Below are positions 1,825 through 32,530 of a DNA stretch of 64,000 bases, piece after piece. The position numbers and the translations under genes were made by a program. The notes below the pieces were generated by a model. It worked only from the letters and a program-made list of their open reading frames with translations. It made no database searches and was not told where the DNA came from. Where the stretch lies: contig MFPL01000007.1 in assembly GCA_001784155.1 (NCBI GenBank), positions 10,101 to 74,100 on the forward strand. The letters are read 5' to 3'. Each line of letters begins with the position of its first letter. The first letter of the stretch is position 1. The DNA comes from Candidatus Levybacteria bacterium RIFCSPLOWO2_12_FULL_41_12 (GTDB lineage Bacteria; Patescibacteriota; Microgenomatia; Levybacterales; UBA12049).

Positions 1825-2965
1825 TTTTAAAAACCTATCCATTGCAATTGTTACTCACGTTTATGCAACCGGCCCTTCCTTTAAGCTCGAAGAATATCTT
1901 AGAAATAAAGTTGAAAACCTAGTATTTATAGGGCATCCATTTTCTTTTGCTAAAGATACAAGATCATTTATTAGAGTTTACAGAAAAGGAGACTTAGTAA
2001 TCGAAAAAAAATTTATAAAAATGAAGAGATCGGAATTTCTATTCTATGCAAAAGATTTTTTATTGACGATTTATTGGTGTCTTAAGTATTCAAAAAACAC
2101 TCAATATTTTTTCGGAGTTAATAATTTCAATTCTTTTTCAGGGTATATATTAAAAAAATTTGGTAAAGTACAAGACGTAATTTTTTATACAATTGATTAT
2201 GTTCCCAATAGGTTTGATAGCAAAATCATGAATTACATATACCACTGGTTAGACAGATTCGTCATTTCCAAAAGTCTGAAAGTTTGGAATCTGTCCTCTC
2301 AAATGGCAGATGAAAGAGAAAAAAGAGGAGTAAACACAAAATTTAGATCTAAACAGATCGTCGTGCCGATTGGCACAGAGATAAATGCCCCCCCTATGGA
2401 ATTTAACAAGATAGACAAAAATAAAATAGTATTTATGGGACATCTTAGGGAAGGTCAGGGTGTTGAAATGCTTGTTTCGTCAATGAAAGATGTCATCAGA
2501 AAAATTCCAGAAGCTCACCTATTGATTATAGGTGGGGGTCCGCTTGAAAATAAAATTAGATTGAAAATTAATAAGCTCAGGCTTGAAAAAAGCATTAAAC
2601 TATCCGGATTTGTTGAGAAGTTTTCCGAGGTAAGGTATCTTTTGAAAAACGCAGCAGTTGCAGTCGCACCCTATGTAGATGACGAAAAAACATACACTCG
2701 CTATACCGATCCGGGAAAACCTAAAGACTATCTTTCCTGTGGCCTGCCGGTAATAATAACTAAAGTGCCTCAGTTTGCTTTTGTAATTGATGAGAAGAGA
2801 TGCGGCATAGCAATAAGCTATGATCAGAATGAGCTCTCCGAAGCAATAATTAAACTGTCATCTAACAAAAATCTCCTGAAGGAATACAGAACAAACGCAT
2901 TTGAACTGGCAAAAAAGTATACATGGGAGAAAATTTTTAATAAAGCCTTTCAAAATACTTTATGA
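1817..2965 (+). CDS. GT4 (GT-B, group 1) glycosyltransferase
   Basis: C-terminal GT-B donor-binding region (GHLREGQGVEMLV...LIIIGGGP...APYVDDEKTYTRYTDPGKPKDYLSCGLPVII). Paralogous to the minus-strand GT4 at 27838..29031 (YTIDY.P.RF..KI.N.IYH.LDR shared). Confidence 0.75.
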   Translation: MNNFKNLSIAIVTHVYATGPSFKLEEYLRNKVENLVFIGHPFSFAKDTRSFIRVYRKGDLVIEKKFIKMKRSEFLFYAKDFLLTIYWCLKYSKNTQYFFGVNNFNSFSGYILKKFGKVQDVIFYTIDYVPNRFDSKIMNYIYHWLDRFVISKSLKVWNLSSQMADEREKRGVNTKFRSKQIVVPIGTEINAPPMEFNKIDKNKIVFMGHLREGQGVEMLVSSMKDVIRKIPEAHLLIIGGGPLENKIRLKINKLRLEKSIKLSGFVEKFSEVRYLLKNAAVAVAPYVDDEKTYTRYTDPGKPKDYLSCGLPVIITKVPQFAFVIDEKRCGIAISYDQNELSEAIIKLSSNKNLLKEYRTNAFELAKKYTWEKIFNKAFQNTL

Positions 2966-3993
2966 AAAGCCTAGTGTCAGTCCTTATTGTAAACTGGAAT
3001 TCCAAAGAAAATCTAAAGGATTGTTTACAGTCTCTATTTAAAATAGATTACCCAAATTATGAAGTAATTATAGTAGATAACGGCTCAACTGACGACTCTG
3101 TTAGCTGGGTAAAGAAAAATTATCCAGGAGTAATAATTGCAAAGGCAAATAGGAATTTGGGGTTTGCGGGAGGAAATGAGTTTGGTCTTAAGCACTGCCG
3201 GGGAAAATACATTTTATTTCTCAATAACGACACGTTAGTAACTAAAAGTTTTCTAACAGAGCTCGTAAGCTTTATTGAAAAAGACGAAAAACTCGCTGTC
3301 GTACAGCCTGCGATTCTTTTTCATCGTCCAGGAGAGTCACTTCATGGAAAGATAAATTCGGTAGGGAGTTTTATTTTAAATAGTGGATTTCTCTACCACC
3401 TTAACTATGGAAAAGAATTTATTGAAAAAGATTATGGAGAGTCATATGAGATTTATACTGCCTACGGAGCGTGTTTCCTGGCAAATAGAAAACTTGTTAA
3501 TAAGCTTGGACTTTTTGATCCAGAGTACTTTGCTTACTTTGAGGAGACTGATTTCAGTCACAGGGTCTGGCTTTCAGGCCATAAAGTGAAGATTTATACA
3601 AAAGCTGTAATCTACCATAAGGGTGCAAAGACAGCCCAAAAATTACCTAGCTCTTTTATACAGTACCACTCTTTCAAAAATAGACTCTTTACCTACCTAA
3701 AGAATTTCGGTCTGGTAAATATTTATAAAATATTTGTACCGCATCTATTTATTTGCGAGGTATCTTCAGTTCTGTATTTGGCTATGAGGCGACCTGGGTA
3801 TACGTTAGCAATTCAGAAGGCTATTCTCTGGAATATTATTAAGGTGGGGAAACTTCTTCGGGAAAGACGCAAAGTTCAGGAGGAAATCAGAAAAGTAAGA
3901 GATGCGGATTTCATTCCCAAATTGACTAGGAAAGTTAATATTAGGTACTATTATTACTTATCTAGCGGAGAGCTTGAAAAATACAGAGAATGA
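2962..3993 (+). CDS. GT2 (GT-A) glycosyltransferase
   Basis: VSVLIVNWNSKENL...VIIVDNGSTDDS...FLNNDT motif set. C-terminal hydrophobic helix. ATGA overlap with upstream gene. Confidence 0.8.
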   Translation: MKSLVSVLIVNWNSKENLKDCLQSLFKIDYPNYEVIIVDNGSTDDSVSWVKKNYPGVIIAKANRNLGFAGGNEFGLKHCRGKYILFLNNDTLVTKSFLTELVSFIEKDEKLAVVQPAILFHRPGESLHGKINSVGSFILNSGFLYHLNYGKEFIEKDYGESYEIYTAYGACFLANRKLVNKLGLFDPEYFAYFEETDFSHRVWLSGHKVKIYTKAVIYHKGAKTAQKLPSSFIQYHSFKNRLFTYLKNFGLVNIYKIFVPHLFICEVSSVLYLAMRRPGYTLAIQKAILWNIIKVGKLLRERRKVQEEIRKVRDADFIPKLTRKVNIRYYYYLSSGELEKYRE

Positions 3994-6476
3994 ACCTAAT
4001 TAAGAAACCCCTTGTCCTAATCTTCTTGGTTGGACTTTTAGCATGGCTTCCCACGTTATTTTTTTGGTTCTTTAAGGGCTATGAGGCGACGTGGTTATTA
4101 GGAGTTGGCGAGTATAATATCCCTAATTTATTAAAGGGCCATGCCTTCCTCTATTATATTGACTGGAAAATATTTGGATGGAATCCTTGGGGATGGTATC
4201 TCACTAGCATCGTTCTCCATCTTATAGCATCTTTCCTTTTGTTTAAATTTGTGTATTTAGTATCTAAGAATAAACTCCTTTCTCTTATAGCATCTATATT
4301 TTTTGTCGCTAATACCTCGTACAACGATGTCTTAACCTGGGGAAGTTTTAATTCATATTATCCACTCCTTTTAATATTGATGCTGGGATCTTTAATAGCA
4401 TTTGCTAAATATAGGGAAACTAAGAGGAAGATCTTTTTAACTATTTCAACAGTTTTTGCTTTCCTTGGATTCTACACTAGAGAAACGGGGTTAGTCATTG
4501 TGCCAATGCTTACAATATTTGATCTCATATTTTCTAATAATCTTAAAAGCAGACAAACAATAATTGATATTGTCAAAAGACAAACCCCTTTTTACATTGC
4601 TTTCTTAACCTTTTTCGTCATAAGGTCTATTTACGGTGGAACTCCGGGTGATAGCGCAGACAGTAATGTAAAATTACAAATGAGATTCGTTGAGGACGGA
4701 CTTTATTTAGAGTACGCGAAAGCTGTTATTCTAACAATGGGAAAGCTCATCCCTCCCCAAATCATACCTTATCCAGCGTTAAATTTAATTAGAGAGAGTT
4801 TTTCAAAGCTTGGACCCGAAAATACATACTTCTTCCCTGCTCTCGGATGGATAATTTTTGGCGGACTAGGGGCAGTAATGATAAAGTTGAGAAAGTCTAA
4901 CTACGCGAGAATTTTTCTATTTTTTCTATTATGGCTTGGATTATTTTCTGTATTCGTATCATTTGCAGTTCCTAATACTCCTGAAGTGTTAGCTAGAGCA
5001 TATGAGTACAATACGATGCGTTATCGATACTTTGCGTTTCTGGGAACCTCTATTCTCCTCGCGGTGATCTTAGCAGAGATATTCAAGAAGAGAGAAAGAG
5101 CGTTAGTTTTTGTAGCGTCAATTGTAGTAATTTTAAATCTGGTAATGTTATGGAGGATAGAGCAGAAAGTTTACGCGCTTTCCTATAAACCGGCAAAAGA
5201 ATTTAATATGAGATTGAGATCATTTTTTCCCACACTTCCCAAAGAAGCCGTTTTCTACTTATATCCACATTCCTCCGGTTTAGGCGACTATCTCCTGGAA
5301 TGGTACCTGATAAAGGGAGATTCCTATTTAAATCTGATTGGAGAACCATACAGGATAGAATCGCAGATAATTGCAGTGATTGATAAGGTAAAAAAAGGCA
5401 AAATAGAACTGTCTAACGTATTCTTTCTCGATTACAATAGCAGTGGTCTTTTAAATGAAACGGATAAGGTAAGAAGAGAACTTTTAAATCAGAAGAGCTA
5501 TCCGGTAAAACTTAATCGCGCAAGCGAAGCGCTTTATAAAAGCAATTCATTTGAAGGGCCAGTTGTCGACATTCCTTATAATATTGACCTTAGCCTGGGT
5601 ATTTCAGAAAACAGTCAATTTGTTGGAAAATCTTCCGATAGTCTAAAATTTAGAGCTTTGGTAGATTATTCCTCTGATAGGATTAATTACTTGAAAACTG
5701 TTTCCGTTTCTACCGCCTATACTATGTCACAGCGGGAGGGAGAACCGTTTTATCATGTTTTACCAGGGAATTTGATCGATGGCAATACGGGAAATAGATA
5801 CTCTTGGATTGCAGATGCATGGAACCCCTGGATACAGGTAGATCTGGGAGAACAGAGGGAGATTATTGCCGCTACGTGGGGATCAATAGATGGATCTACC
5901 AGAGTGCCAGCAACCTATTCGATATCTGTCTCAAAAGACGGAAGGGAATGGGTAAAAGCAAAAGATGTTAAAAATGCCAATTATGCTAAAAGCATTGATG
6001 TTTTTGATAAGCCGTATATAGCAAGGTTTGTTAGAATGGATATAAACACAACTTCCGGAGGAGACTTCGTAATGCTGGATGAGTTTGAAGTGATTTCCTA
6101 CTCAAGTAAAAATATTCTCTTATACTACAAAGATAGAGATAAACTATTGACTGACTACTACAACATGTTTGACTTTATGGGAGGTCAGGATGATTTATCT
6201 TATTTAAGAGACAAGGGACTAGATACTTATTGGGGCAAGTTGTCCTGGGAGACAAATAAGACAGCGCTGGGGGAAAATGGTCAAGTTTTATATTTTCAGT
6301 ATAATATTAATAATTCATTCCAACAAATAACCTTAGATCTCAATGAAGGAGAAATCTATTCCGGAAGCGGTAATTTTCTTAAAAAATATGTGAAATCAGT
6401 AGTAATAGATTTTGGACGAACCCCTTTTAATTTCTCATTGGATTCTTTACAATTTATACCTAGATTTAAGTTATGA
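3990..6476 (+). CDS. Polytopic GT-C-like membrane glycosyltransferase fused to a C-terminal F5/8 type C (discoidin/CBM32-like) domain
   Basis: About 400 aa of repeated hydrophobic helices (PMT/ArnT/AftD-like). Then an extracytoplasmic ~430 aa region containing NLIDGNTGNRYSWIADAWNPWIQVDLGEQREI..TWGSIDGSTRVPATYSISVSKDGREW, a discoidin signature. Confidence 0.6.
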   Translation: MNLIKKPLVLIFLVGLLAWLPTLFFWFFKGYEATWLLGVGEYNIPNLLKGHAFLYYIDWKIFGWNPWGWYLTSIVLHLIASFLLFKFVYLVSKNKLLSLIASIFFVANTSYNDVLTWGSFNSYYPLLLILMLGSLIAFAKYRETKRKIFLTISTVFAFLGFYTRETGLVIVPMLTIFDLIFSNNLKSRQTIIDIVKRQTPFYIAFLTFFVIRSIYGGTPGDSADSNVKLQMRFVEDGLYLEYAKAVILTMGKLIPPQIIPYPALNLIRESFSKLGPENTYFFPALGWIIFGGLGAVMIKLRKSNYARIFLFFLLWLGLFSVFVSFAVPNTPEVLARAYEYNTMRYRYFAFLGTSILLAVILAEIFKKRERALVFVASIVVILNLVMLWRIEQKVYALSYKPAKEFNMRLRSFFPTLPKEAVFYLYPHSSGLGDYLLEWYLIKGDSYLNLIGEPYRIESQIIAVIDKVKKGKIELSNVFFLDYNSSGLLNETDKVRRELLNQKSYPVKLNRASEALYKSNSFEGPVVDIPYNIDLSLGISENSQFVGKSSDSLKFRALVDYSSDRINYLKTVSVSTAYTMSQREGEPFYHVLPGNLIDGNTGNRYSWIADAWNPWIQVDLGEQREIIAATWGSIDGSTRVPATYSISVSKDGREWVKAKDVKNANYAKSIDVFDKPYIARFVRMDINTTSGGDFVMLDEFEVISYSSKNILLYYKDRDKLLTDYYNMFDFMGGQDDLSYLRDKGLDTYWGKLSWETNKTALGENGQVLYFQYNINNSFQQITLDLNEGEIYSGSGNFLKKYVKSVVIDFGRTPFNFSLDSLQFIPRFKL

Positions 6477-7447: not shown

Positions 7448-8107
7448 ATGAATATCTTTATTCCGAAGAAAGAAAATCTAATTCCATTGGAGTTTGAGTA
7501 TATCGATAGCACGATTGATCAATATTACAGGCCGCTACAGGGGTATTTCATGAGGAAAAGACTGGGTCTTGTCGCCTCAATGTTTGGGAAGAAGAAAGTA
7601 GATAAGGTTTTAGACGTAGGATACGGAGGGGGCACCTTTATTCCTATGCTTAGTAAAGCTGCAAAGAAAGTATATGGCATAGATACGATGCCTTATCCTC
7701 AAAAGGTTAAGAAGATTTTAAAGAAAGAAGGGTTATCAGCTGATCTTACAGTTGGATCAATATTTAAACCACCATATAAAAAAGAATTTTTCGATTTGAT
7801 TGTTTGCGTAAGTGTTCTTGAGCACTTTGAGGGAAAGCAAATTAACAATGCTGTTAAGCAAATGTACAATCTTTTAAAGCCCGGGGGGATTATTGTTTTA
7901 GGATTTCCCGTGAAGAACCCCATGACGGATTATATCATTGATCACTTCCTAAGCTTTAACCCCGATGATATTCATCCCTCAGGACACAAGCAGATCCTTA
8001 AGGGAATAAGAGAGGAAGTTAGAGTAGACAAAATGATTCATTATTTTCCCTTCCTGCCTCTAGACCTCTCCCTATACTGTGTCGTAAGGGTAAAAAAATC
8101 AAAATAA
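7448..8107 (+). CDS. Class I SAM-dependent methyltransferase
   Basis: Motif I VLDVGYGGGTF. Post-I acidic residue. LLKPGGIIVL motif. Confidence 0.7.
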   Translation: MNIFIPKKENLIPLEFEYIDSTIDQYYRPLQGYFMRKRLGLVASMFGKKKVDKVLDVGYGGGTFIPMLSKAAKKVYGIDTMPYPQKVKKILKKEGLSADLTVGSIFKPPYKKEFFDLIVCVSVLEHFEGKQINNAVKQMYNLLKPGGIIVLGFPVKNPMTDYIIDHFLSFNPDDIHPSGHKQILKGIREEVRVDKMIHYFPFLPLDLSLYCVVRVKKSK

Positions 8108-8113
8108 TGTTCA

Positions 8114-8794
8114 ATGGATAAAACCAAGGTATCAATTATTATTGCCTGTAAGAATGAAGGCGAAGGAATAAAAAAAGTCCTCGAATCGGTAAGAAAATAT
8201 TCAAGCGATATAATTGTAGTAGATGGACATTCAGGGGATGGTACAGAAGAGATGGTTAGGGGGTTTGGTGCAAGATTCTTTTTAGACAATAAAAAAGGAC
8301 GTGGGGACGCATTGAAGATCGGTATAAAAAAAGCAAAGAAGGATGTAGTACTGTTTTTTGACGCTGATGGGTCGCACGATGAAAAAGATATACCAAATTT
8401 TGTTAGGCCAATTTTGGAAAAGAGGGCGGATCTTGTAATTGGTTCAAGGAGAACCGGAGGAAGCGCGGATATAATTGTAAATCTTACAGGAATTGTCCGA
8501 TCTGCAGGATGTGATTTTCTTGTAGCGATGGTGAATCATAAGTTTAAAACAAATTTAACAGACATTCTTTATAGCTTTAGGGCTATTAGAGCGTCTACAG
8601 TTAAGAAAATAGCTTTGCATTCAGATGATTTTGGAATTGAACAGGAGATGGTGGTTTCCTGTTTGAAACTCGGATATGTGGTTAAGGAAATTCCGAGCAG
8701 AGAAAAGGCGCGTGGATGGGGCAAGTCAAAACTTAGAACAATTACGGGGATTAAATTTATTTTTTCTCTAGTTAATCAGCTATATTTTTCCTGA
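8114..8794 (+). CDS. GT2 DPM1-like (polyprenyl-phosphate sugar synthase-like) glycosyltransferase, soluble catalytic domain
   Basis: VSIIIACKNEGEGI...IIVVDGHSGDGT...FFDADGSHD (DxD). No TM segments. Confidence 0.7.
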   Translation: MDKTKVSIIIACKNEGEGIKKVLESVRKYSSDIIVVDGHSGDGTEEMVRGFGARFFLDNKKGRGDALKIGIKKAKKDVVLFFDADGSHDEKDIPNFVRPILEKRADLVIGSRRTGGSADIIVNLTGIVRSAGCDFLVAMVNHKFKTNLTDILYSFRAIRASTVKKIALHSDDFGIEQEMVVSCLKLGYVVKEIPSREKARGWGKSKLRTITGIKFIFSLVNQLYFS

Positions 8795-8806
8795 GTGATT
8801 TCTAAA

Positions 8807-9457
8807 TTACCGATCTGAGTTAGATAAATTTTTTATTGGTCTAATAACAAAAATTTGCGTTGAATCGGGAAAATAGAAGACGCCAGGAATAACTTTGCTC
8901 GATAATCCCAAAGATAGAAATAACCTTTCCCATTCTTTTTTTGACCTTGCATAGATCATATCTTTTGGATAGAGAAATTTTTCTATAATATGTCCAAAAA
9001 GAAAAGGCACTCTGTTTGAGGAATCGACCTCCTTTATAATCAACAGTGAATTACCATCAAGCCTTTTTGATATAAAACGAATAATTTTATCCTGGTTTTT
9101 AAAAGAAATGTGATGTAACATATCGATCATAAGGTAACAATTTGCTTTTGGTAAATTTGTTTTGACTACGTCTCCAAATATAAACTTGATGTTCTTTCTT
9201 TTTCTAATACTTTTTACCGCTTGAGAAATCCTATCTTTTGAGAAATCAATGCCGGTCACTTTTCTTTCTTTTGACCCGAGCACTATGTAGTTAGTGAAGC
9301 CGCCATTTCCACAGCCTATATCCAAAACAATCCCTTTTTTGGGAATGATTTTGTCGAGCTTGTCATAAGGCAGAATAACTATTCTTAAAATCGTCCATAA
9401 AGCTTTTAGGATTCCTTGCGGCTTGTAAATGAGGAAAAGAGACCTAAGTTCTCTCAT
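8807..9457 (-). CDS. Class I SAM-dependent methyltransferase
   Basis: VLDIGCGNGGFTNYI motif I on the minus-strand translation. Confidence 0.7.
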   Translation of the reverse strand: MRELRSLFLIYKPQGILKALWTILRIVILPYDKLDKIIPKKGIVLDIGCGNGGFTNYIVLGSKERKVTGIDFSKDRISQAVKSIRKRKNIKFIFGDVVKTNLPKANCYLMIDMLHHISFKNQDKIIRFISKRLDGNSLLIIKEVDSSNRVPFLFGHIIEKFLYPKDMIYARSKKEWERLFLSLGLSSKVIPGVFYFPDSTQIFVIRPIKNLSNSDR

Positions 9458-9463
9458 AAATTA

Positions 9464-10486
9464 TTAATTGTTTCTTCTAATTTTATTTCCTGGGTCATTA
9501 AATATACTTTTTACTACGTATTTTGGTCTGCCTTTAACTTCCTCAAAAATCTTCCCCATATATTCTCCCAGAATGCTTATTCCCAAGAGTTGAAGCGCTC
9601 CGAAGAAGAGAATTGCTATAAGAATTGAAGTGACGCCGTGCGGAATGTCAGGGTTAATAAGCTTAAGAATTACAAGAACTATGATTGCAAGGGACGCGAA
9701 GACAAATATTACAGAAGAAAGAAGAGCTAGGAATTGAAGCGGAACGTAGGAGAAGGAAAAAATTCCCTTTGTAGCCCAGTTAAGATTTTTTAGTATACTG
9801 TTGGTTGTCTTGCCGAACATTCTTTCAGGTCTAGTGTAAGGAACACCAGTCTGCTTAAAGCCGACCCATGCGCGAAGTCCTCTAAGAAATCTGTCTCTTT
9901 CTGGAAACTCTTTTAGTGCGTCTACTACTCTTCTGTCTATTAGAGAAAAGTCCCCTGCATCTAAGGGAATCTTTATGTAAGAAAGCTTATGAAATACACG
10001 ATAAAACGACTTGTATAAGAAAACCATGTAAAGTGGCGCCTCACGTTTTACACGTACACCATACACGATGTCAAATCCTTTTAGCCATTTGGGATAGAAT
10101 TTCTCGATAATTTCCGGAGGGTCCTGAAGATCTCCATCGAGCAAAACTACTGCGTCTCCTGTCGCGATATCCATGCCGCTTGTGAAGGCCATTTGCGAGC
10201 TGAAGTTTCTTGAGTGATTTACCCCGATTACATGCTTATCCTGTCTACAAAGACTTGCTAATACACTTTCAGTATTATCCAGACTACCATCGTTGACGAA
10301 AATAATTTCATAATTCAGCCCGATTTTTTTGAAAATTTTAACAAGCCTTTTGTGCATTATGGGGATTGCACGTTCGTCGCCGTAGCATGCAATAATTGCA
10401 GAAATCTTTTTCCTTTTAAGTCTGTTTTTCATATACAATAAGATTTGTTCCACAGTAGATTCTATTGAGATATGGGATATTTTCAA
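9464..10486 (-). CDS. GT2 polyprenyl-phosphate glycosyltransferase (DPM1/ArnC/GtrB-like) with two C-terminal TM helices
   Basis: ISAIIACYGDE...FVNDGSLDNTESV...LLDGDLQDPPE motifs. C-terminal ILIAILFFGALQLLGISILGEY membrane anchor typical of GtrB/ArnC. True start may be the internal MKNRLKRKK (about 10429), which reduces the overlap with the upstream gene. Confidence 0.75.
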   Translation of the reverse strand: MKISHISIESTVEQILLYMKNRLKRKKISAIIACYGDERAIPIMHKRLVKIFKKIGLNYEIIFVNDGSLDNTESVLASLCRQDKHVIGVNHSRNFSSQMAFTSGMDIATGDAVVLLDGDLQDPPEIIEKFYPKWLKGFDIVYGVRVKREAPLYMVFLYKSFYRVFHKLSYIKIPLDAGDFSLIDRRVVDALKEFPERDRFLRGLRAWVGFKQTGVPYTRPERMFGKTTNSILKNLNWATKGIFSFSYVPLQFLALLSSVIFVFASLAIIVLVILKLINPDIPHGVTSILIAILFFGALQLLGISILGEYMGKIFEEVKGRPKYVVKSIFNDPGNKIRRNN

Positions 10487-11171
10487 GGATTGGCTCGACA
10501 GCTTTTATTAGCTTTGCCGGCCTTTCGGGGAAAAAGAAAGGAACTATTCCGAAGAAGCACTGTTTCCTTACCTGAAACCCGTTTCTTTCAAACCATCTAT
10601 TCAGAGTGGGCGGCCAGTATGATTTTTCCTCGTGTTCCCTGTGATAAGTTGAAACCTTTTCCATGATTTTCATAATCGGGCTGTATCCATTGGGTTCTGC
10701 TACGATAATTACATCAGCAAGCTTGCTAATCGCGTTTATTCCTTTTTGAGGTTGATAAAAATGGTGCAGAACTCCTCTTACTACAGCAACATCAAATTTT
10801 TCTTTAATTTTTTTATCAACTACATAAACACTTGAGACCAAAAAATTTATTCTTTTGGCGTCTTTTTTACGAATCTTTTTTTTTGCAATCCTCACCCCTT
10901 CTTCAGCATAGTCAAAACCTACAATTTTTTTTGGGCTTAACTTCTGATACAGCTCGAAGGTATAGGTTCCGTCTCCGGATCCTACATCAAGTATCTTCAG
11001 CGGTTTCTTAAATTTTTGTGATCTTATTGCTTTTAAAATACCATCCGATTGTTTTTTTGACGCTACAACAGCAGAATAAATATTTTGGTCTGTATAAGCG
11101 TAACCACCAAGCATCTTGACGTCTCTATTAAATTTTGAAATATTTTTTTCTCTATCTCTTCTTCTCTTCAT
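10416..11171 (-). CDS. Class I SAM-dependent methyltransferase
   Basis: ILDVGSGDGTYTFEL motif I. VVRGVLHHF. Confidence 0.7.
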   Translation of the reverse strand: MKRRRDREKNISKFNRDVKMLGGYAYTDQNIYSAVVASKKQSDGILKAIRSQKFKKPLKILDVGSGDGTYTFELYQKLSPKKIVGFDYAEEGVRIAKKKIRKKDAKRINFLVSSVYVVDKKIKEKFDVAVVRGVLHHFYQPQKGINAISKLADVIIVAEPNGYSPIMKIMEKVSTYHREHEEKSYWPPTLNRWFERNGFQVRKQCFFGIVPFFFPERPAKLIKAVEPILENIPYLNRIYCGTNLIVYEKQT

Positions 11172-11172
11172 A

Positions 11173-11700
11173 TTATCGTCTTAGGTTTACATACCAAGGC
11201 TTATTATTCTTTACCATCTCTCTTACGATGCTTGGAATTTCCTTAACGTCATCTGGCCATCTTGCTTCAATATTACCAAGAATTTTTAAAACTTGCTTGT
11301 CTTCTAAAGGCCAATGGGATATCCCATCATGCGAATAGTCTTTGTCTCTTCCGGAACCGACTAATCTCACGGGAATCTTTTCATAATTTATATAATTACG
11401 TATCGTTTCAAAAGGTCTGTATAGAAGAAACGTTGTAATCGAATAGGTGAATGGAATTTTCCCTTCAAGAGCCAGTCCTATTGCTATTCCCATCATAGCT
11501 TGTTCCGATGCGCCTACGTTAAGGTACCTATCCGGGAAGTCATCACGAATCCTATCCCACATACCGTAGCCAAGATCTCCCGTCACGACCCAAATGTTCT
11601 TATTTTTTAACATTTGAGAATGCAGGGAAGCTGCGAATGCTGCTCTTTGATTATCTTTAATAGTCATGTAATAATTCCATCGCGAGAGTGAAATCCTCAT
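11173..11700 (-). CDS. Transketolase C-terminal-section subunit, truncated (Pyr domain only, 175 aa)
   Basis: GASEQAMMGIAIGLALEGKIPFTYSITTFLLYRPFE (pyrimidine-binding domain). Ends about 130 aa short of the plus-strand paralog at 25143..26093. The next gene on the same strand starts immediately, leaving no room for the missing C-terminal domain. Confidence 0.65.
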   Translation of the reverse strand: MRISLSRWNYYMTIKDNQRAAFAASLHSQMLKNKNIWVVTGDLGYGMWDRIRDDFPDRYLNVGASEQAMMGIAIGLALEGKIPFTYSITTFLLYRPFETIRNYINYEKIPVRLVGSGRDKDYSHDGISHWPLEDKQVLKILGNIEARWPDDVKEIPSIVREMVKNNKPWYVNLRR

Positions 11701-12385
11701 TGCTCATTATGTAATAATGCGCCCCCTGATCTTTCAAGAAGGGGAATTGATTTACTTTCGTTTCAGCAAAAATTATATTTTCTTTTTTGCTTTTCAAAGC
11801 CTTAACTATTTGCTGAGTGTCATGCCCGTTAATTCTTTTTATATCGGGAGCAAATCCTTTTAGCCTTTTATATAAGGAGTCTTTGGGGATCGGAGCGTAT
11901 GCTCCCCAGCCGTTAACGTTAATCAAAATCTTCAAATTATTAATTTTCTGATCTCGAATAATTCTTAGTGATTCCCATATACTTCCTTCGGTTGATTCTC
12001 CGTCAGAGATCATGCAATATACATTTTTACCTCTATTTGAAAGCGCAATGCCCAAAGCTATTGGAAGCCCTTGTCCTAGACTTCCCGTTGATACATCAAC
12101 TCCAACTGCTGGATTCCGATCAGGATGCACATGCAGCTTTTCGGATTCGCCTGCTTTTAATAAGCCGTATTTTTCTAAAATAGTGTACAGCGCTATTCCG
12201 GCATGACCATTTGATAAAATAAATTTTTCGTTTTTTGATTTGATACTATAAACTGCATCTATCAGATCAACACTACTCAAACATGATCCCAAGTGAGATA
12301 AATTCAGTTTGTGAGAGATTATAAGAATTCTTCTTCTGATATCTCTTTGTCCTTTAGAAAGTTTTTTTAAGTCGTATTTATTCAT
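11657..12385 (-). CDS. Transketolase N-terminal-section subunit (TPP-binding)
   Basis: GHAGIALYTILEKYG, STGSLGQGLPIALGIA, ISDGESTEGSIWE motifs. Confidence 0.75.
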   Translation of the reverse strand: MNKYDLKKLSKGQRDIRRRILIISHKLNLSHLGSCLSSVDLIDAVYSIKSKNEKFILSNGHAGIALYTILEKYGLLKAGESEKLHVHPDRNPAVGVDVSTGSLGQGLPIALGIALSNRGKNVYCMISDGESTEGSIWESLRIIRDQKINNLKILINVNGWGAYAPIPKDSLYKRLKGFAPDIKRINGHDTQQIVKALKSKKENIIFAETKVNQFPFLKDQGAHYYIMSNEDFTLAMELLHDY

Positions 12386-13331
12386 CCGTCAATCTATTCT
12401 GAACGAGCCAATTATAAGTTTTGCTTAGTCCTTTTTCAATCGAGTATTTTGGTTTCCAATTCAACATTTTTTTAGCTTTCGTTATGTTTGCAATCCAATG
12501 GGGATTATCCCACATTCTTTTCTCAAATCCTCCCTTGATCACTTTGGTTTTTTGGCCTGTCATCTTAAAAAGAGTTTTTACAATCTCATCGTTTGTGTAT
12601 TCATGTCCGGTACCGGCATTAATTATTTCACCCGATAGCTTGCTTGATTTTTTTAACGCAGCAACATAAATATCTATGAGGTCGTCAATAAATATAAAGT
12701 CACGTCTTTGCTTGCCGGGGGTAAGCATTATCGGACGTTTCGCAATCAGTGCATGCATAATTGTCGGAATAAATCTGTCTTTTTGCTCATATGGTCCATA
12801 TACGGAGAAAGGTCTAATGGTAACGATGGGTTTTTTATATTGGTACGAAAAAGCCTGGCATAAAAGCGTCTGGGAGGCTTTGGCTGCTGCATAAAAACTT
12901 ATCGGTTCTAAAATATCAGCCTCTTTCATTGGCTTGGGCTTGAGTCCATATTCTGAGGAAGACCCCGTGTTAACAAAAATTTTATAATCTACGTCAATAG
13001 TTGCATAGAGTAATTCTAATGTCCCGTTTACGGATGTTGTGATAATTTGTTCTGCATCTTCTTGATTTCTGTACGAACCATAAGTAGCCAAATGAAATAT
13101 AGCCGTTGGGGATATTTTTTCCATTAACTTCTTCAAAGACTTTTTAGTAGGTGGAGCTGCGTGAAGCGTTATATTTTTTTTTATTTCTTTAAGTCTCCAG
13201 TTGTCTGAGGATTTTCTATGTATAACATGAACTTCATATCCCAGCTTTACAAGACGGCGTGTTAAATTAGCTCCAATAAAGCCTCCTCCTCCTGTGATGA
13301 CAATTCTTTTACTCGATGAGCCTGCCCTCAT
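12378..13331 (-). CDS. NAD-dependent sugar epimerase/dehydratase (SDR, extended family)
   Basis: RIVITGGGGFIGANL Rossmann motif. YAAAK catalytic YxxxK. Confidence 0.75.
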   Translation of the reverse strand: MRAGSSSKRIVITGGGGFIGANLTRRLVKLGYEVHVIHRKSSDNWRLKEIKKNITLHAAPPTKKSLKKLMEKISPTAIFHLATYGSYRNQEDAEQIITTSVNGTLELLYATIDVDYKIFVNTGSSSEYGLKPKPMKEADILEPISFYAAAKASQTLLCQAFSYQYKKPIVTIRPFSVYGPYEQKDRFIPTIMHALIAKRPIMLTPGKQRRDFIFIDDLIDIYVAALKKSSKLSGEIINAGTGHEYTNDEIVKTLFKMTGQKTKVIKGGFEKRMWDNPHWIANITKAKKMLNWKPKYSIEKGLSKTYNWLVQNRLTDE

Positions 13332-13381
13332 TTCGCTACATTATAGTTTATATGGTAAAATCAAAGCAAATCATCATCCCG

Positions 13382-15979
13382 ATGAAGAAAATTAATTTTT
13401 TATTCTTGCTCGTTATACTCGCAGTCGTTGTTTTATTTTCCTTGGGAAAAACCCTGGACTACTATTTCTTCACTGACGATTACGCATTTTTGTATTATCT
13501 CGGAAACAATCTTGAATTTGGATGGCCATACAACTCAGTCCTATCTATATTCAGCCCTATATATAAGCTTTTCGGAACCAATGCTCAGCCTTATTTTACC
13601 TTAGCTGTAGTAACTTATTTTTTTGCTTCAGTAAGCGTTTTCTTTTTTGCCAAAGCTTTAACAAAGAACTTACTGGTTTCCTCAGTAGCCTCGGTTATTT
13701 TTGCAACCGGCTATATTGGGCTAGATCAATTTAGCATGATCGCTGTTTCGATAATTAACAACTTGAATGTTATTAATGTCAGTATTACTTTGATACTTTT
13801 AATTTATTGGATCGAAACAAGGAAGCTCAGATACTATTTCTTAACTTTTTTTATGTTTTGGTTTAGTCTGCTTCTTTTTCCACACAGAGCATATCCTTTG
13901 GTTTTATTTCTGCCTTCTCTGGAATTAGTACTTAGTTTTAAACCGCGAAAACTCAAAAATATGCTCAAGCAAGTAGTAAGCTTATTTTTAAGATACATAC
14001 CCTTTCTCATTGTTGCAGTCCAGCGTGGAGTTTTTTCTTACGGTACACATGGCACCGAAAATGTTCATCTTTTGAATCTGGTTGAAACAGACAGCAAGAT
14101 CTACACGCTTTTTAATCCGTTATTTTTTAAAGAACTTTTTGCAGTGTTGGGTAAGTTCGTGTTATTGCCTTCATTTACGGATTTCTTTAAATACGTACCA
14201 AGTCAGGATTTTTACTCGTTTGTGGGAGTTGCCACATCTCTGCTGGCAACTGCCATGTCGATAGTTATTTACAGACGTGAAAAGCAAAAAAACGGCAGAG
14301 TGATTTTTGCTGTTTTTCTTTTGACAATACAAAGTTACGCTGGAAACATGTTTCTAAACGTAGATTTTGATGCTAACGGCCCGGTAAATAGATACTTAAC
14401 AATATCGTTTCTTTTTTATTCTATTTTGATTTCACTGTTTTTTTATTTGTTTCTTCAGATATTGTCTAAGATAAATGTTAATGCAAAAAAGAGAATTTAT
14501 GCGACCCTGGCATTTTTTCTTATTTTAGTTCTTGCATCACTCTCCAGAGATTATGAGGAACGGGTCCTTGAAGACCGAAGTCAGCCTGCGATAAAATTTT
14601 TTAAAGAATTAAAGACTTATGTCCCCGCGCTTTCAGACTCAAATTACAACATATTTTATTTTGATAGAGCGTCTTATTATCCCGTATCTTCTAGATTTGG
14701 AAATGTACTTCTCAGCGCAGCTATGGGCAACAGCGTCAACCTGGCGTTTCCTTACGGGATATCGGTTGATTCGGTTAAGATAACGGACACTTTCGAAGAT
14801 TTTCTACGTCTGGTTTTTTATACACCAGAGGGTAAAAAACCTGTTTACTATACGTTTTATAACGATGAGAGTGGTCTTAAAGACACAACAGACGATGTAT
14901 TCAGTCTTTTAGAAAGTGGTGGTTCTACCGTGATTTCAAGCGATAAGATAACATACAAAAACGAACAGGGAATTAATGCGGTAAGCATAAATACAGCGGG
15001 AGTATCAAGCCTTACCCCGCTTTCATTAAGGATGAGTCTTCAAGCAACCCCTCTTCCGCCGTCAGCGTTTGCGTTTCCTTACTCTTTTAACGCAAGCCTA
15101 ACGGAGTCTATTTCGGAGAGTGAAAAAGAGAAAATTTTTAAATATCTTCTTTCTCGAGAGAAATATTATGAAAGCGTGAGGGTTCAGGTTGAATCCATAC
15201 ACGTTGGTAAGAAGAACCCTGCGTCGTATTTAGTTGATGATAATCCTGACACCAACTGGATTTCCGATCAAAGCAGATGGGAAGTGGGTATAAAGCCTTG
15301 GATTAAAATAGATCTCTCAGAGGAGAGAAGCATAGGGACGGCTCTTTGGAGACAGTCTCCTTCCCGTGCTGTAGAAGATTTTACAATTAATGTTTCAAGT
15401 GACGGCGAGAACTGGACTGGTGTGAAGAATTTGAGCAAGCGAAACATTTACTCCGACAATAGTCTGGTGGCGGTCGATTTCAATCCCGTTAATGCCCGTT
15501 ACGTAATGCTTACGATTGTAAGTCTATCGACGGGCCCAGGTCCGAGTTTGGCGGAAATAGAACTATTAGAAGATGAATTTAATAGGATGGATATAGAAAA
15601 GGCATTCGGAATGAAAGATAACCCTTTTGCGAGTATCTCTGATGTTGAGGAAGTTGCGCAGGCGTATGCGTATTTAGAAAAAAACGCAAAGTTAAAGATA
15701 AAAACATTTACAAACAAAGACGATCCCGTGTCCAGTGCTGTGCTAGGTGAAATTCCTATCTTTCTGGATGGAGCCTATCATGATTACGAATTTCAGATAC
15801 CTCAAGGCGGGACTCATCTCAAAGAAATAAGACTTGAAGCCAATTTTCCCGCAAGTTTTAATGTTAGTCGGGTGCTCATAGAAAATCTGTCCAAGGAAAA
15901 AGTTCTTGAGGAAACCCGAAAAAAGTGTCTCGAGTTTACAGGGATAGATTCCTGGAGAAATCCTTTCGATTGTAGCTAG
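13382..15979 (+). CDS. Polytopic GT-C-like membrane glycosyltransferase with a C-terminal F5/8 type C (discoidin) domain. Paralog of 3990..6476
   Basis: Start moved to the internal ATG (MKKINFLFLL) so it does not overlap the divergent gene. TDDYAFLYY loop motif followed by many TM helices. C-terminal LVDDNPDTNWISDQSRWEVGIKPWIKIDLSEERSIGTALWRQS...FTINVSSDGENW discoidin signature. Confidence 0.6.
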   Translation: MKKINFLFLLVILAVVVLFSLGKTLDYYFFTDDYAFLYYLGNNLEFGWPYNSVLSIFSPIYKLFGTNAQPYFTLAVVTYFFASVSVFFFAKALTKNLLVSSVASVIFATGYIGLDQFSMIAVSIINNLNVINVSITLILLIYWIETRKLRYYFLTFFMFWFSLLLFPHRAYPLVLFLPSLELVLSFKPRKLKNMLKQVVSLFLRYIPFLIVAVQRGVFSYGTHGTENVHLLNLVETDSKIYTLFNPLFFKELFAVLGKFVLLPSFTDFFKYVPSQDFYSFVGVATSLLATAMSIVIYRREKQKNGRVIFAVFLLTIQSYAGNMFLNVDFDANGPVNRYLTISFLFYSILISLFFYLFLQILSKINVNAKKRIYATLAFFLILVLASLSRDYEERVLEDRSQPAIKFFKELKTYVPALSDSNYNIFYFDRASYYPVSSRFGNVLLSAAMGNSVNLAFPYGISVDSVKITDTFEDFLRLVFYTPEGKKPVYYTFYNDESGLKDTTDDVFSLLESGGSTVISSDKITYKNEQGINAVSINTAGVSSLTPLSLRMSLQATPLPPSAFAFPYSFNASLTESISESEKEKIFKYLLSREKYYESVRVQVESIHVGKKNPASYLVDDNPDTNWISDQSRWEVGIKPWIKIDLSEERSIGTALWRQSPSRAVEDFTINVSSDGENWTGVKNLSKRNIYSDNSLVAVDFNPVNARYVMLTIVSLSTGPGPSLAEIELLEDEFNRMDIEKAFGMKDNPFASISDVEEVAQAYAYLEKNAKLKIKTFTNKDDPVSSAVLGEIPIFLDGAYHDYEFQIPQGGTHLKEIRLEANFPASFNVSRVLIENLSKEKVLEETRKKCLEFTGIDSWRNPFDCS

Positions 15980-19274: not shown

Positions 19275-20292
19275 TCTTCCATCTATTTCTATTGTTACAT
19301 GTACATATAATGTGAATCTTAAGTTGTTTGAAAAAGTATTAAAAGCTTTAAGAGAACAAGTTTACCCCAAACGTTTGATCGAACATATTGTTATGGATGC
19401 TGGTTCATCTAATGGAACAGTGGAGCTTGCGAAAAAATTTGGGTGCAAAGTATATGTTCATCCGGAGCTTTTGGAAGAAGAACAAGTTCGTGCATCCTTA
19501 GGTTTCAAAAAAGCAAAAGGTAAAATTCTTTTAATAATCCAATCCGATAATTTAGTGCCTTCGAATGATTGGCTCAGAAGAATGGTTCAGCCGTTCGTAG
19601 AGAACAAAAAAGTTTTTTGCACATATACCGCTCGCTATAGCTACACAAAAGATATGTCCGCTATAACTCGCTATGGAGCGCTCATTGGAGCAAACGACCC
19701 TCTAATATCCCCCTATTTTTTGGATAAGATTGAAAAGATTGCAATGACCACTAGTAATTACAATAAAGGAACCATAATTTCCGAAAACAAGAACCATTAT
19801 ATTGTTAAATTTAATAAGGATAATTTTCCTCCGCTCGGTGATAATGGCCAGATGGTTTTAAGAAGCGTAATGGAAAAAGTAAATAAAGATCCAAAAGAAT
19901 ATCTTCACTTGGACACTTTTTCCAGAATGTTTGATTTAGGTTATGATACCTGTGGTGTAGTCAAAGCTTCGATAATTCATGTTATTACTTCAGACATTAA
20001 GCGCTTTGTGACAAGAAGAATTCAGTTAAAGGAAAAGTTTTTTGATGATAGACGCAATAATCGCAGATTTCTTATATTTGATATAAATTCAAAAAAAGAT
20101 AGAATTAATTTGATCAAATACGTCATTTTTTCTTTGACTTTTGTTCCCACCTTATTTCAAGGCGCCAGGGGATATTTGAAAATAAGAGATAGCGCATGGT
20201 TTCTCCATCCTGTAATCTGCTTTATAATGCTTATTGCATATGGATATTCAGAATTTAAGTGGATTTTGAAGAAATCTTTGAGACTAGCTTAG
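19267..20292 (+). CDS. GT2-like (GT-A) glycosyltransferase with C-terminal membrane helices
   Basis: SISIVTCTYNVNLKLFEKVLKAL...VMDAGSSNGT. Hydrophobic C-terminus (VIFSLTFVPTLF). Confidence 0.55.
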   Translation: MNNLPSISIVTCTYNVNLKLFEKVLKALREQVYPKRLIEHIVMDAGSSNGTVELAKKFGCKVYVHPELLEEEQVRASLGFKKAKGKILLIIQSDNLVPSNDWLRRMVQPFVENKKVFCTYTARYSYTKDMSAITRYGALIGANDPLISPYFLDKIEKIAMTTSNYNKGTIISENKNHYIVKFNKDNFPPLGDNGQMVLRSVMEKVNKDPKEYLHLDTFSRMFDLGYDTCGVVKASIIHVITSDIKRFVTRRIQLKEKFFDDRRNNRRFLIFDINSKKDRINLIKYVIFSLTFVPTLFQGARGYLKIRDSAWFLHPVICFIMLIAYGYSEFKWILKKSLRLA

Positions 20293-20810
20293 TAGTCTTT
20301 GTAAATTTTCCTGAGTTCCCCGAGATTAACGGTTGAAAAATAAACTACTGTTTCAAAAGTCTTCTTGTCTTTTTTTTCGACCTTTTTGGCTATATCGTTT
20401 AAAACCTCTTGGTGCTTAAAAGAAGCTTTTTCTACTCGGTTGAAAAGCTCTTTAGTTGGTTTTCTTCTCTCGTCTTTGAATAGAAATACTAAAAGGGTTA
20501 TCTCATTCTCACCTTTTAAAGCCGTTTCCTTGGCAAGTTCCACATTCCCTTTATCTGCCAATATCTTAGCCATTAGTATTCTTTTATCTGCCAGAAGAAG
20601 ATGTTGCTCAGCTTTTTTAATGGGGTCTTGTATTATGAATAACATCACTTTATCTCTTAAAACCTTAAGCTTGTAAAGTTTGTGATCGGGAAGCATTCCC
20701 GGATAAGGAAGATCGTATTTTACCGATGCTGATGTGGTAGAGTTGTCGCGTGCAAATCCAACTCCCGAAAAAACAAAAATCAAAATGAGGGCGATTGCAA
20801 TTTTCTTCAT
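20289..20810 (-). CDS. Secreted/exported hypothetical protein (signal peptide)
   Basis: MKKIAIALILIFVFSGVGFA signal peptide, then a Lys/Glu-rich helical body. Start placed at the internal Met (track ORF starts at 20843). Confidence 0.45.
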   Translation of the reverse strand: MKKIAIALILIFVFSGVGFARDNSTTSASVKYDLPYPGMLPDHKLYKLKVLRDKVMLFIIQDPIKKAEQHLLLADKRILMAKILADKGNVELAKETALKGENEITLLVFLFKDERRKPTKELFNRVEKASFKHQEVLNDIAKKVEKKDKKTFETVVYFSTVNLGELRKIYKDY

Positions 20811-20852
20811 ACAGCAATTATAGCATAGGTTTGTAAAACGCATCCACCTATA

Positions 20853-23266: not shown

Positions 23267-24295
23267 ATGAAAAAATATGTAGGCATTTTCCCTTACAATG
23301 ATCACAGGTACTTATTGAATGCAGCGTTTAATAAAAATCTAAACGGTCTTGAGACTCCTATCTTCGTGACACTAAAAAAGTCTTTAAAACAGGTAAATAT
23401 AGAAGTAAATACATATGACATAGTGACAAAAGAAGAACTTTATACGTATGTATATTTTGATTTACCAAATCTTTGGAATATCAAAGCATGGGTAAAGATA
23501 ATCTCAAACAAAAACAAAAATATCCTGATCTGCAATGAGCCTCCTATTGTAATACCATTTAATTATTGGAAAATATTTCATACATTCTTTACAAAAGTTT
23601 ATACATGGAATGATAGCTTGGTAGACAACAAAAAATATTTTAAAATACTTTTGCCCAAAACAAGCTTAGGTCTTAACATCAAACCAAAAAAATTTAAAGA
23701 GAGGAAGTTTTTAGTTCTTATAAATAAAAACATACTGCCTTTTTACCCATTCAAAATTATCTTAAAGTTCGGAAAAGAGCTGTATACGGAGAGAATAAGA
23801 GCTATCGAATTTTTTGAGAAGACCATTCCAAAAAAGTTTTATCTTTACGGGCGAGATTGGAACAAACCCAAAAAGCATAATTTAACTGAGAGAATTATTG
23901 GTCCAAAGAAGTACTTGACCTACAAAGGTGAGGTCGACGATAAGATAGAATTATTATCAAGCTTTAAATACTCTATTTGCTTCGAGAACTTAACTGATAC
24001 CACAGGGTTTATTACCGAGAAAATATTTGATTGTCTAAAAGCTAGATGCGTCCCCGTCTATTGGGGTGCTACGGATATAGAAAATTATATTCCGAGGGAG
24101 TGCTTTATTGATTTTAGGCAATTCAAGGACTATGATGAGCTTCTAAAATTTTTAAATTCAATTAGCGAACAGAAGTATGCCAAGTATATAAAAAGCATTG
24201 AGAAATTGTTGTCTGATAAAAAATTTATAAACTTATGGTTTGAAGAAGCTTTTGCAGACTTTTTCATAAAGGATATTTTGGAAATAAAAAAATGA
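23267..24295 (+). CDS. GT10-family alpha-1,3/4-fucosyltransferase-like glycosyltransferase
   Basis: YKFSICFENLTDTGFITEKIFDCLKARCVPVYWG closely resembles the GT10 acceptor/GDP-Fuc motif block of Helicobacter FucT (YKFNLCFENS..GYVTEKI.D......P.YWG). Confidence 0.7.
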   Translation: MKKYVGIFPYNDHRYLLNAAFNKNLNGLETPIFVTLKKSLKQVNIEVNTYDIVTKEELYTYVYFDLPNLWNIKAWVKIISNKNKNILICNEPPIVIPFNYWKIFHTFFTKVYTWNDSLVDNKKYFKILLPKTSLGLNIKPKKFKERKFLVLINKNILPFYPFKIILKFGKELYTERIRAIEFFEKTIPKKFYLYGRDWNKPKKHNLTERIIGPKKYLTYKGEVDDKIELLSSFKYSICFENLTDTTGFITEKIFDCLKARCVPVYWGATDIENYIPRECFIDFRQFKDYDELLKFLNSISEQKYAKYIKSIEKLLSDKKFINLWFEEAFADFFIKDILEIKK

Positions 24296-32481: not shown

Positions 32482-32530
32482 CTTTGATGTTGAAATTTTT
32501 TCATAAAGTATATATAGTTTCGAGTATAAA

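Follow-up and report, generated by a model that had tools for sequence, protein, structure and literature searches.

A large glycan locus of a Levybacteria genome with three predicted polyprenyl-phosphate glycosyltransferases and seven GT-C-type membrane proteins

Introduction

In the 'three-component' mechanism of glycosylation, a polyprenyl-phosphate (polyprenyl-P)-sugar synthase, a flippase and a glycosyltransferase (GT) of the GT-C fold act together, and the GT-C sometimes carries carbohydrate-binding modules, according to the passages on this mechanism in PMC11127046 and in its reference 5 (Mann & Whitfield 2016). The described examples include GtrA/GtrB/Gtr* in Shigella and Salmonella, CsbB/YfhO, GtlA/GtlB and PgfS/PgfM in Firmicutes, and ORF15/ORF14/ORF12 (GT136) in Citrobacter youngae. 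Here we compare these systems with a stretch of 64,000 nucleotides from Candidatus Levybacteria bacterium RIFCSPLOWO2_12_FULL_41_12 (contig MFPL01000007.1, positions 10,101 to 74,100, forward strand), which is referred to as the window and to which all coordinates below belong. Three of its family-2 glycosyltransferases (GT2), designated GT2-A, GT2-B and GT2-C, appear to be polyprenyl-P glycosyltransferases, and they are encoded among seven polytopic proteins of the GT-C type. Predicted synthases and GT-C proteins of a lipid-linked-donor route are present and linked, and no protein of the window matches a known flippase.

The Candidate Phyla Radiation (CPR, Patescibacteria) accounts for much of bacterial diversity, and its envelope chemistry is essentially uncharacterised. 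Candidatus Levybacteria is a groundwater bacterium from a lineage known for small genomes, and nearly the whole 64-kb window is devoted to surface glycan assembly. Our literature search for GT-C enzymes or polyprenyl-P glycosylation in the CPR found nothing specific; apparent mentions of ArnT in PMC8172020 turned out to be names of authors. Membrane families enriched in Microgenomates are recorded as uncharacterised (PMC6744442), and the GT-C families of the present locus are mostly annotated as 'hypothetical'. The original prediction, made from the DNA of the window, had regarded several lipid-linked donors serving many GT-C enzymes as characteristic of the mycobacterial cell-wall core and as a notable finding at low G+C. 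This was too narrow, since the same logic is found widely, low-GC Firmicutes included, and the best NCBIfam match of GT2-B is a streptococcal protein, PgfS.

Three GT2 proteins related to lipid-phosphate glycosyltransferases

The three open reading frames (ORFs) that had been proposed as GT2 enzymes of the DPM1/ArnC/GtrB type are all present. Each matches Pfam Glycos_transf_2 and carries a DxD motif, which is D83-A-D85 in GT2-A, DGD in GT2-B and D88-A-D90 in GT2-C. All three are homologous to solved lipid-phosphate glycosyltransferases beyond the nucleotide-binding half of the domain. The same is true of none of the five other GT2 proteins in the window, which served as a control and reach at most 37 bits against PgfS and at most 21 bits against ArnC, within the first ~100 residues only. 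In a neighbor-joining tree, which is small, has no support values and is meant as an illustration, GT2-B falls with GtrB and GT2-C with ArnC, while GT2-A lies at the base of the clade beside dolichol-phosphate mannose synthase (DPMS) and the five other GT2 proteins stand apart. Hence no grouping with GT2 families that use other than lipid acceptors was seen. These comparisons support placing the three proteins in the DPMS/GtrB/ArnC clade of polyprenyl-P glycosyltransferases, and a lipid acceptor is predicted for them from sequence.

GT2-B (9464-10432, reverse strand) is of the GtrB type. It aligns with Synechocystis GtrB sll0501 (5ekp) at an E-value of 4e-77 and 42% identity over residues 26-329, including the C-terminal transmembrane (TM) hairpin, and with ArnC at 4e-43; the PgfS match scores 239 bits. 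The ORF extends to 10486, which had been taken as the gene start. However, homology begins at residue 26 and the 340-aa ORF that starts with TTG is absent from the protein collection, suggesting that translation probably begins at M19 (10432). GT2-C (40515-41432, forward strand) is ArnC-like, matching three ArnC structures (9hwj, 3e-44, residues 2-284), then GtrB (1e-27) and DPMS (1e-18). Both proteins possess two C-terminal TM segments, which align with those of GtrB and ArnC. TM pairs had been predicted for GT2-B and GT2-C, and the C-terminal helices expected of this class are found in these two and missing in GT2-A, which had been described as soluble.

GT2-A (8114-8794, forward strand, 226 aa) resembles DPMS, AglJ and PpgS and consists of the catalytic domain only (Pfam Glycos_transf_2, 1e-23). 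Its sole PDB sequence match at E<=1e-5 is the Pyrococcus furiosus DPMS (5mlz, 1.6e-10, residues 23-239), with residues 4-215 of GT2-A aligned. The top NCBIfam matches, all over the full length, are AglJ (125 bits), a haloarchaeal dolichol-phosphate hexose transferase and mycobacterial PpgS. In an alignment of GT2-A, two orthologues and DPMS, D37, D83-A-D85, GSR110-112, R159, R200 and SKL205-207 are invariant. GT2-A has no hydrophobic segment and no TM helix, and its C-terminal tail (GIKFIFSLVNQLYFS) is hydrophobic and conserved and could sit at the membrane interface. Polyprenyl-P transferases that lack TM helices do exist, as exemplified by PpgS and human DPM1.

Seven proteins of the GT-C type

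The polytopic GT-C-type proteins of the window, named here by their start positions, are 3990, 13316, 33221, 34897, 38586, 45214 and 48435. Their number is slightly lower than the 'at least 8' that had been predicted, and together they contain seven GT-C_A-type domains and one Wzy_C/WaaL-type domain, eight in total. Three of them are discoidin/PMT_2-like, two have an AftD-like fold, 48435 is a plain PMT_2 protein, and 45214 fuses a Wzy_C/WaaL-like half to a PMT_2-like half. Each has 7-22 hydrophobic segments. Conserved acidic residues were found in three families: D33 is invariant in that of 38586, D595-D596 are invariant in the C half of 45214, and E32 is kept in at least 90% of the 3990 family. 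Four of the seven have large extracytoplasmic regions: in 3990 and 13316 this is a discoidin/CBM32 domain, in 34897 it contains DUF5667, and in 38586 it is C-terminal and mixes helices with strands. The homologues of the three queried families (3990, 38586 and 45214) come from Patescibacteria.

Only 48435 (48435-49874, forward strand) matches a GT-C family of Pfam directly (PMT_2, GT39/GT83-like, 7e-11, above the cut-off). Because its hhalign comparison with the family of 3990 was negative, its GT-C status comes from Pfam only. In 3990 (3990-6476, forward strand), the TM domain is PMT_2-like and is joined to a discoidin/CBM32 domain outside the cytoplasm; the protein is the probable user of the GT2-A product. 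Discoidin/CBM32 is found in 28/28 members of its family (A3) and PMT_2 in 11 of them, and the window protein itself gives no PMT_2 match at E<=0.01. Its discoidin-bearing paralogue 13316 (13316-15979, forward strand) is transcribed divergently from the GT2-B operon and matches A3 by hhalign with a probability of 99.8%; this arrangement recurs in the related locus L033. The third member, 33221 (33221-34900, forward strand), lacks the discoidin domain and is linked to A3 at 98.4%.

The two AftD-like proteins are 38586 (38586-40505, forward strand), with the invariant D33 in its first external loop, and the larger 34897 (34897-38271, forward strand), in which an AftD-like TM domain is followed by DUF5667 and a further extracytoplasmic region; the latter is related to the family of 38586 (A1) by hhalign (98.9%, E 1e-17). 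The AlphaFold (AF2) model of 38586 has a predicted local distance difference test (pLDDT) score of 88, and in a Foldseek search of the PDB with it GT-C proteins fill the first 19 places. The best is mycobacterial AftD (6w98, E 4.6e-8, TM-score 0.54-0.56; a likeness at fold level, with 12-13% identity), followed by STT3, DPY19, PglB, ArnT, ALG12 and AftA. Among the orthologues of 38586, a few match PF11847 GT-C_AftD, and YfhO and PF10131, both Firmicute-type GT-C families, are matched as well.

The fusion protein 45214 (45214-48402, forward strand, 1062 aa, family A2) is 56-65% identical across Levybacteria and Roizmanbacteria and far better conserved than the adjacent glycosyltransferases. Its N half is Wzy_C/WaaL-like: PF04932 Wzy_C is found in 23/32 orthologues (best E 1.6e-6), the window protein itself giving no match, and Foldseek aligns this half with WaaL (7tpg) at a probability of 1.00 and a TM-score of 0.60 normalised to WaaL, in a model of moderate quality (pLDDT 77) and at E ~1e-2. 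The model also matches the STT3/PglB/Pmt4/ArnT class. The C half (residues 556-1062) is PMT_2-like, being related to A3 by hhalign (98.5%, E 2e-15), with the invariant DD at 595-596. The fusion could couple, in one enzyme, the polymerisation or ligation of a glycan linked to polyprenyl diphosphate (polyprenyl-PP) with its decoration from a polyprenyl-P-sugar. Single-sequence searches of the PDB with 3990, 34897 and 45214 returned discoidin-domain matches or nothing, and profile searches with A3 and with two further clusters (A4 and A5, see below) likewise gave no membrane-domain match.

Conserved gene neighborhoods of the three GT2 genes

GT2-A is the last gene of a module that begins with a cytoplasmic GT2 (2962-3993, forward strand), continues with the discoidin GT-C 3990 and has a S-adenosylmethionine (SAM)-dependent methyltransferase (7448-8107, forward strand) directly 5' of GT2-A. 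This order is kept in loci of two other species (L031 and L032), where GT2-A is 77% and 62% identical and the discoidin GT-C 58% and 47%; the methyltransferase occupies the same place there, at 71-74% identity. L031 has an additional pair of a small GT2 and a PMT_2 GT-C.

GT2-B is the last gene of a four-gene cassette (9464-13331, reverse strand). Upstream of it (11173-13331) lie a gene for a 4,6-dehydratase-like short-chain dehydrogenase/reductase (SDR; start 12378, 317 aa) and a short, split transketolase-like pair, comprising an N part (11657, 242 aa) and a pyrimidine-binding part (11173, 175 aa) without TK_C. A metagenome scan recovered more than 547 stretches with relatives of GT2-B at 60-84% identity. 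Neighborhoods were counted in the 33 metagenome loci that span 9 kb or more, and the four-gene order SDR/transketolase N part/pyrimidine-binding part/GtrB-type GT2 is present in 26-31 of them; L033, L035, L037, L040 and L045 are among the loci with this cassette. In the window, GT2-B is flanked by two methyltransferase genes, which do not belong to the cassette. In support of a link with GT-Cs, a large polytopic ORF lies within 8 kb of the GT2-B orthologue in 31 of the 33 loci, and in 13 of the 33 that ORF matches the GT-C profiles derived from the window or falls into a ten-member cluster (A5), which hhalign relates to the AftD-like family at 98.2%. Some GtrB orthologues are accompanied by polytopic ORFs of 686-694 aa (cluster A4; three of the four directly downstream), whose hhalign probability is just 39-41% to A1 and A3. 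Near other GtrB orthologues (L061:2226-4778 and L079:2237-4837), ORFs of 850-866 aa join an N-terminal GT2 similar to GT2-A/GT2-C to a membrane domain of 13-18 segments, and these may be synthase-transferase fusions.

GT2-C heads a block that is kept in four long Levyibacteriota loci (L004, L005, L007 and L008), and the short contig L006 represents the block start. The order is GT2-C, a 174-aa ORF with a GT4 N-domain, a GT4, a hexapeptide acyltransferase, a GT2, the Wzy_C::GT-C fusion, the PMT_2 GT-C, a GT4 and a GT2. The 174-aa ORF (41663-42187) sits directly upstream of the full GT4 in the five related loci (41663-43745 in the window); it is a separate ORF in all five relatives, and its interpretation as a pseudogene was rejected. 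In the present genome alone, a gene for a four-helix-bundle protein of the 23S rRNA intervening-sequence family (42221-42595) lies between the GT4 fragment and the GT4. Two of the related records, L004 and L006 (CAYZEE010000001.1 and CAZAIV010000043.1), are titled 'uncultured Gammaproteobacteria', yet they contain the Levybacteria-type block at 50-65% protein identity, and the label is probably wrong. Taken together, the co-occurrence of GT2 and GT-C genes, which the original prediction proposed to look for in other genomes of the lineage, recurs beside each of the three GT2 genes in related genomes and metagenome contigs.

The small ORF that had been noted in a gtrA-like position is real and directly follows GT2-C (41439-41660, forward strand). 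It encodes a 73-aa membrane protein with two or three hydrophobic stretches, which is found directly after the GT2-C orthologue in two of the five related loci (L004 and L005 only) at 49-53% identity. This conservation rules out a spurious ORF, and the protein is possibly an accessory or anchor subunit. A second small gene (38249-38599, forward strand) overlaps with its ends both AftD-like GT-C genes and encodes a 116-aa protein with about three to four hydrophobic segments, a candidate flippase or accessory subunit. The gtrA-like character was not borne out: even with the threshold relaxed to E<=10, the 73-aa and the 116-aa protein gave no match to GtrA (PF04138, proteins of about 120 aa with four TM helices) or to another Pfam family. 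For the ORF at 52008-53054, Pfam at E<=10 yielded nothing useful.

Proposed route and alternative explanations

The original prediction was a two-step route in which sugars are loaded onto polyprenyl phosphate in the cytoplasm, flipped, and then transferred by GT-C enzymes outside the membrane. With the recurrence of GT2/GT-C co-occurrence in related genomes, this is the best reading of the locus, and we give it a probability of about 0.7. In one branch, the phosphoglycosyltransferase of the Bac_transf family (56529-57194, forward strand; WbaP/EpsB type) would start a glycan linked to polyprenyl-PP (undecaprenyl diphosphate), the cytoplasmic GT2, GT4 and GT10 enzymes would lengthen it, and the Wzy_C/WaaL-like half of 45214 would polymerise or ligate it outside the membrane, as far as family membership indicates. 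In the other branch, on the cytoplasmic side of the membrane, GT2-A, GT2-B and GT2-C would each load one sugar from a nucleotide sugar onto polyprenyl monophosphate. A further component would flip the resulting lipid-linked monosaccharides, with which the seven GT-C-type enzymes would then decorate the glycan or surface proteins on the outside.

Synteny suggests how the partners may be paired. GT2-A would work with the discoidin GT-C 3990, together with the methyltransferase; GT2-B with AftD-like or discoidin GT-Cs, the SDR and transketolase-like cassette serving as supplier; and GT2-C with the block that ends in the Wzy_C::GT-C fusion and the PMT_2 GT-C 48435. GT-Cs of the PMT_2 type, such as ArnT and PMT, use polyprenyl-P-monosaccharides, and the use of such donors by the GT-Cs of the locus is suggested by their synteny with the GT2 genes. 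The donor sugars, the lipid acceptor, the flipping step and the final acceptors of this scheme are likewise predictions, whereas the families and folds, the catalytic motifs and the conserved gene neighborhoods are observed.

The cassette may supply an unusual sugar for the lipid-linked donor. Its enzymes could extend the chain of a deoxysugar or give it a two-carbon branch and then load this sugar onto polyprenyl phosphate, and if this were true, the product would be a lipid-linked donor of a type not described so far. YerE and the avilamycin eurekanate genes, the latter reportedly AviB1/AviB2, provide a lead for this chemistry rather than a test of it. Enzymes dependent on thiamine diphosphate (ThDP) can put two-carbon branches on nucleoside diphosphate-4-keto sugars, as in these two cases, going by the citation of Treede et al. 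2005 for avilamycin in PMC4753412. Both the cassette and the Wzy_C::GT-C fusion are conserved and undescribed; that they represent new biochemistry of CPR envelope assembly is a tentative idea, which we regard as possible but doubtful.

Several observations weigh against the lipid-linked-donor route. Among the window ORFs of at least 80 aa, all of which were scanned with Pfam and NCBIfam, there is no Wzx, MATE, SMR, ABC or GtrA protein, nor any other known flippase family, so that the flipping step of the original prediction has no recognisable enzyme within the window. The NCBIfam scores of the three GT2 proteins are far below the equivalog cut-offs (239 vs 500 bits for GT2-B, 169 vs 529 for GT2-C and 125 vs 325 for GT2-A), and their sugar specificity is therefore not transferable from the named enzymes. 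The assignment of GT2-A leans on an identity of 28-29% with DPMS, and TM helices are absent. The structural evidence for 45214 comes from the moderate model described above. Of the 82 polytopic ORFs near GT2-B orthologues, 73 could not be classified, and the count of 31 in 33 loci is a raw one, to which chance occurrence in CPR contigs may contribute. Finally, STT3 and PglB, GT-C folds that use polyprenyl-PP-oligosaccharides, rank just after AftD for 38586, so some of the seven GT-Cs may not use GT2 products.

This last point leads to an alternative in which some or all of the GT-Cs are en-bloc oligosaccharyltransferases, polymerases or ligases acting on polyprenyl-PP-oligosaccharides, as STT3, PglB, WaaL and Wzy are, and the GT2 products serve another target whose genes lie elsewhere, such as a glycolipid or a polymer resembling teichoic acid. 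The strong STT3 and PglB matches of 38586, the Wzy_C/WaaL-like N half of 45214, and the phosphoglycosyltransferase and many cytoplasmic glycosyltransferases of the locus would fit it, as would the far greater conservation of GT2-B (60-84%) compared with any nearby GT-C, which is what a housekeeping donor synthase with changing partners would show. However, each GT2 gene is tightly and repeatedly adjacent to GT-C genes across species, and five of the seven GT-Cs are of the PMT_2 type, a class known for polyprenyl-P-monosaccharides. Nor was a WWDxG-type oligosaccharyltransferase signature seen, although no search was aimed at one. We consider this alternative unlikely. A narrower objection concerns GT2-A, which might instead be a soluble enzyme whose acceptor is itself soluble or linked to lipid-PP, in the manner of glucosyl-3-phosphoglycerate synthase or a side-chain transferase, leaving the locus with two lipid-linked monosaccharide donors only. 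The missing TM segment, the low identity with DPMS (28%, BLAST 57 bits), the NCBIfam scores well under all cut-offs, with GpgS among the matches at 43 bits, and the basal, unsupported position in the distance tree all agree with such an enzyme. Nevertheless, DPMS is the only PDB sequence match at the threshold used and aligns across the whole protein, the top three NCBIfam matches are all polyprenyl-P transferases over the full length, TM-less PpgS and human DPM1 offer parallels, the conserved hydrophobic tail possibly contacts the membrane interface, and GT2-A adjoins a GT-C gene in three species, all of which makes a soluble role quite unlikely.

We also considered that the locus might build an arabinogalactan or lipoglycan core like that of mycobacteria, fed by decaprenyl-P-arabinose or -mannose and using GT-Cs of the Emb/Aft/Mpt type that are homologous to or derived from those of Actinobacteria. 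In its favour, 38586 has AftD as its top structural match, a few orthologues of this protein match PF11847, there is a weak NCBIfam match to the MmpA family, and GT2-A matches PpgS. On the other hand, no UbiA-type decaprenylphosphoryl-5-phosphoribose (DPPR) synthase, DprE1/DprE2, GlfT or Emb was found among the window ORFs scanned, and the parallel with the mycobacterial decaprenylphosphoryl-arabinose (DPA) pathway did not hold. In addition, the identity of 38586 with AftD is merely 12-13%, its orthologues also match the Firmicute-type families YfhO and PF10131, and the homologues of the three queried GT-C families belong to Patescibacteria. Such a core, already disfavoured, is highly improbable, and loading by the three GT2 proteins, flipping and GT-C transfer outside the cell stays the preferred reading.

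Other genes of the locus

The G+C content of the window is 34-42%, and it is coding almost throughout on the forward strand. According to the Pfam and NCBIfam scans, a single, very large glycan locus of ~59 kb occupies positions 1-59227, and beyond 59237 there are housekeeping genes for RecO, an aminoacyl-tRNA synthetase, IMPDH and MsrA. The locus encodes eight GT2, six full-length GT4 plus the stand-alone GT4 N-domain ORF, one GT10-like enzyme, six SAM methyltransferases and two split transketolase-like pairs, as well as the Bac_transf initiating phosphoglycosyltransferase, a DUF4012 protein and the seven large polytopic membrane proteins. Its nucleotide-sugar enzymes comprise DegT, RmlC, RmlD, several SDR dehydratases/epimerases and two nucleotidyltransferases. 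The DUF4012 gene (57251-59227) adjoins that of the initiating phosphoglycosyltransferase; DUF4012 is a CPR-enriched family tied to capsule and exopolysaccharide clusters (PMC6744442).

The second split transketolase (24292-26093) is complete, with an N part of 284 aa and a pyrimidine-binding plus C part of 316 aa. Its start overlaps the end of the GT10 fucosyltransferase-like gene and an SDR gene comes next; it could be a pentose-phosphate or a sugar-modifying enzyme. The reverse strand at 20289-22277 encodes a FAD/GMC-like oxidoreductase of 474 aa and, after it, a DUF5667 protein with a membrane anchor; DUF5667 is also found within the large GT-C 34897-38271 (residues 669-773). Directly 5' of the GT-C 33221, genes at 30035-33220 encode a protein of the type I phosphodiesterase/alkaline-phosphatase superfamily, a HAD-like hydrolase and a PAPS-reductase-domain protein, and the glycan may accordingly carry phospho- or sulfo-modifications. 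Meanwhile, the SAM methyltransferase at 27122-27841 has a hydrophobic segment near its C-terminus (around residues 182-213) and may be a membrane-anchored enzyme working on lipid-linked sugars.

Comparison with known systems

With P. furiosus DPMS, human DPM1, AglJ and PpgS, GT2-A has in common the catalytic domain, the DAD motif and the other invariant residues, and like human DPM1 and PpgS it is TM-less. Its identity with DPMS is 28-29%, and no membrane-tethering partner was identified. GT2-C recalls the ArnC/ArnT pathway of lipid A aminoarabinose modification, in that it aligns with ArnC structures across 283 residues (E 3e-44) and ArnT belongs to the same Pfam family as the PMT_2-type GT-Cs of the locus. 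However, the window has no genes for ArnA, ArnB, ArnD, ArnE or ArnF, and the ArnC score is 169 bits against a cut-off of 529. CPR bacteria seem to be without a Gram-negative-type envelope (PMC6744442), and lipid A is therefore an unlikely acceptor here.

The mycobacterial GT-C set (AftA-D, Emb, Mpt and PimE, with Ppm1 and DPA donors) likewise combines several lipid-linked monosaccharide donors with many GT-Cs, and it contains the closest solved fold of 38586. This likeness is at the level of the fold, and genes of the DPA pathway were not found in the window. While the mycobacterial GT-C genes are dispersed, those of the Levybacteria genome are clustered in one locus of a low-GC CPR bacterium.

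The closest parallel in organization is provided by the three-component systems. Shared with them are a GT2 synthase with a C-terminal TM hairpin, as shown by the GtrB and PgfS matches of GT2-B, and GT-Cs encoded close by, some of which carry carbohydrate-binding modules, as does GT136 ORF12 (PMC11127046). In contrast to those systems, the window has no recognisable flippase, one of its synthases is TM-less, and all NCBIfam scores are under the equivalog cut-offs. Under the lipid-linked-donor assignment, 3990 is the candidate partner of GT2-A, and 48435 or 45214 that of GT2-C, while the GT2-B cassette is a further candidate unit; the enzymes of the locus are also candidate new parts for glyco-engineering. 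The route itself is textbook three-component glycosylation and involves no new principle. What sets the locus apart is the dense packing, three synthases and seven GT-C proteins per locus where the known systems have one synthase and one GT-C, together with the TM-less synthase, the linkage of a GtrB-type GT2 with ThDP-enzyme genes, and GT-C families specific to the lineage, namely the discoidin-fused PMT_2-like proteins, the AftD-like proteins and the Wzy_C::GT-C fusion.

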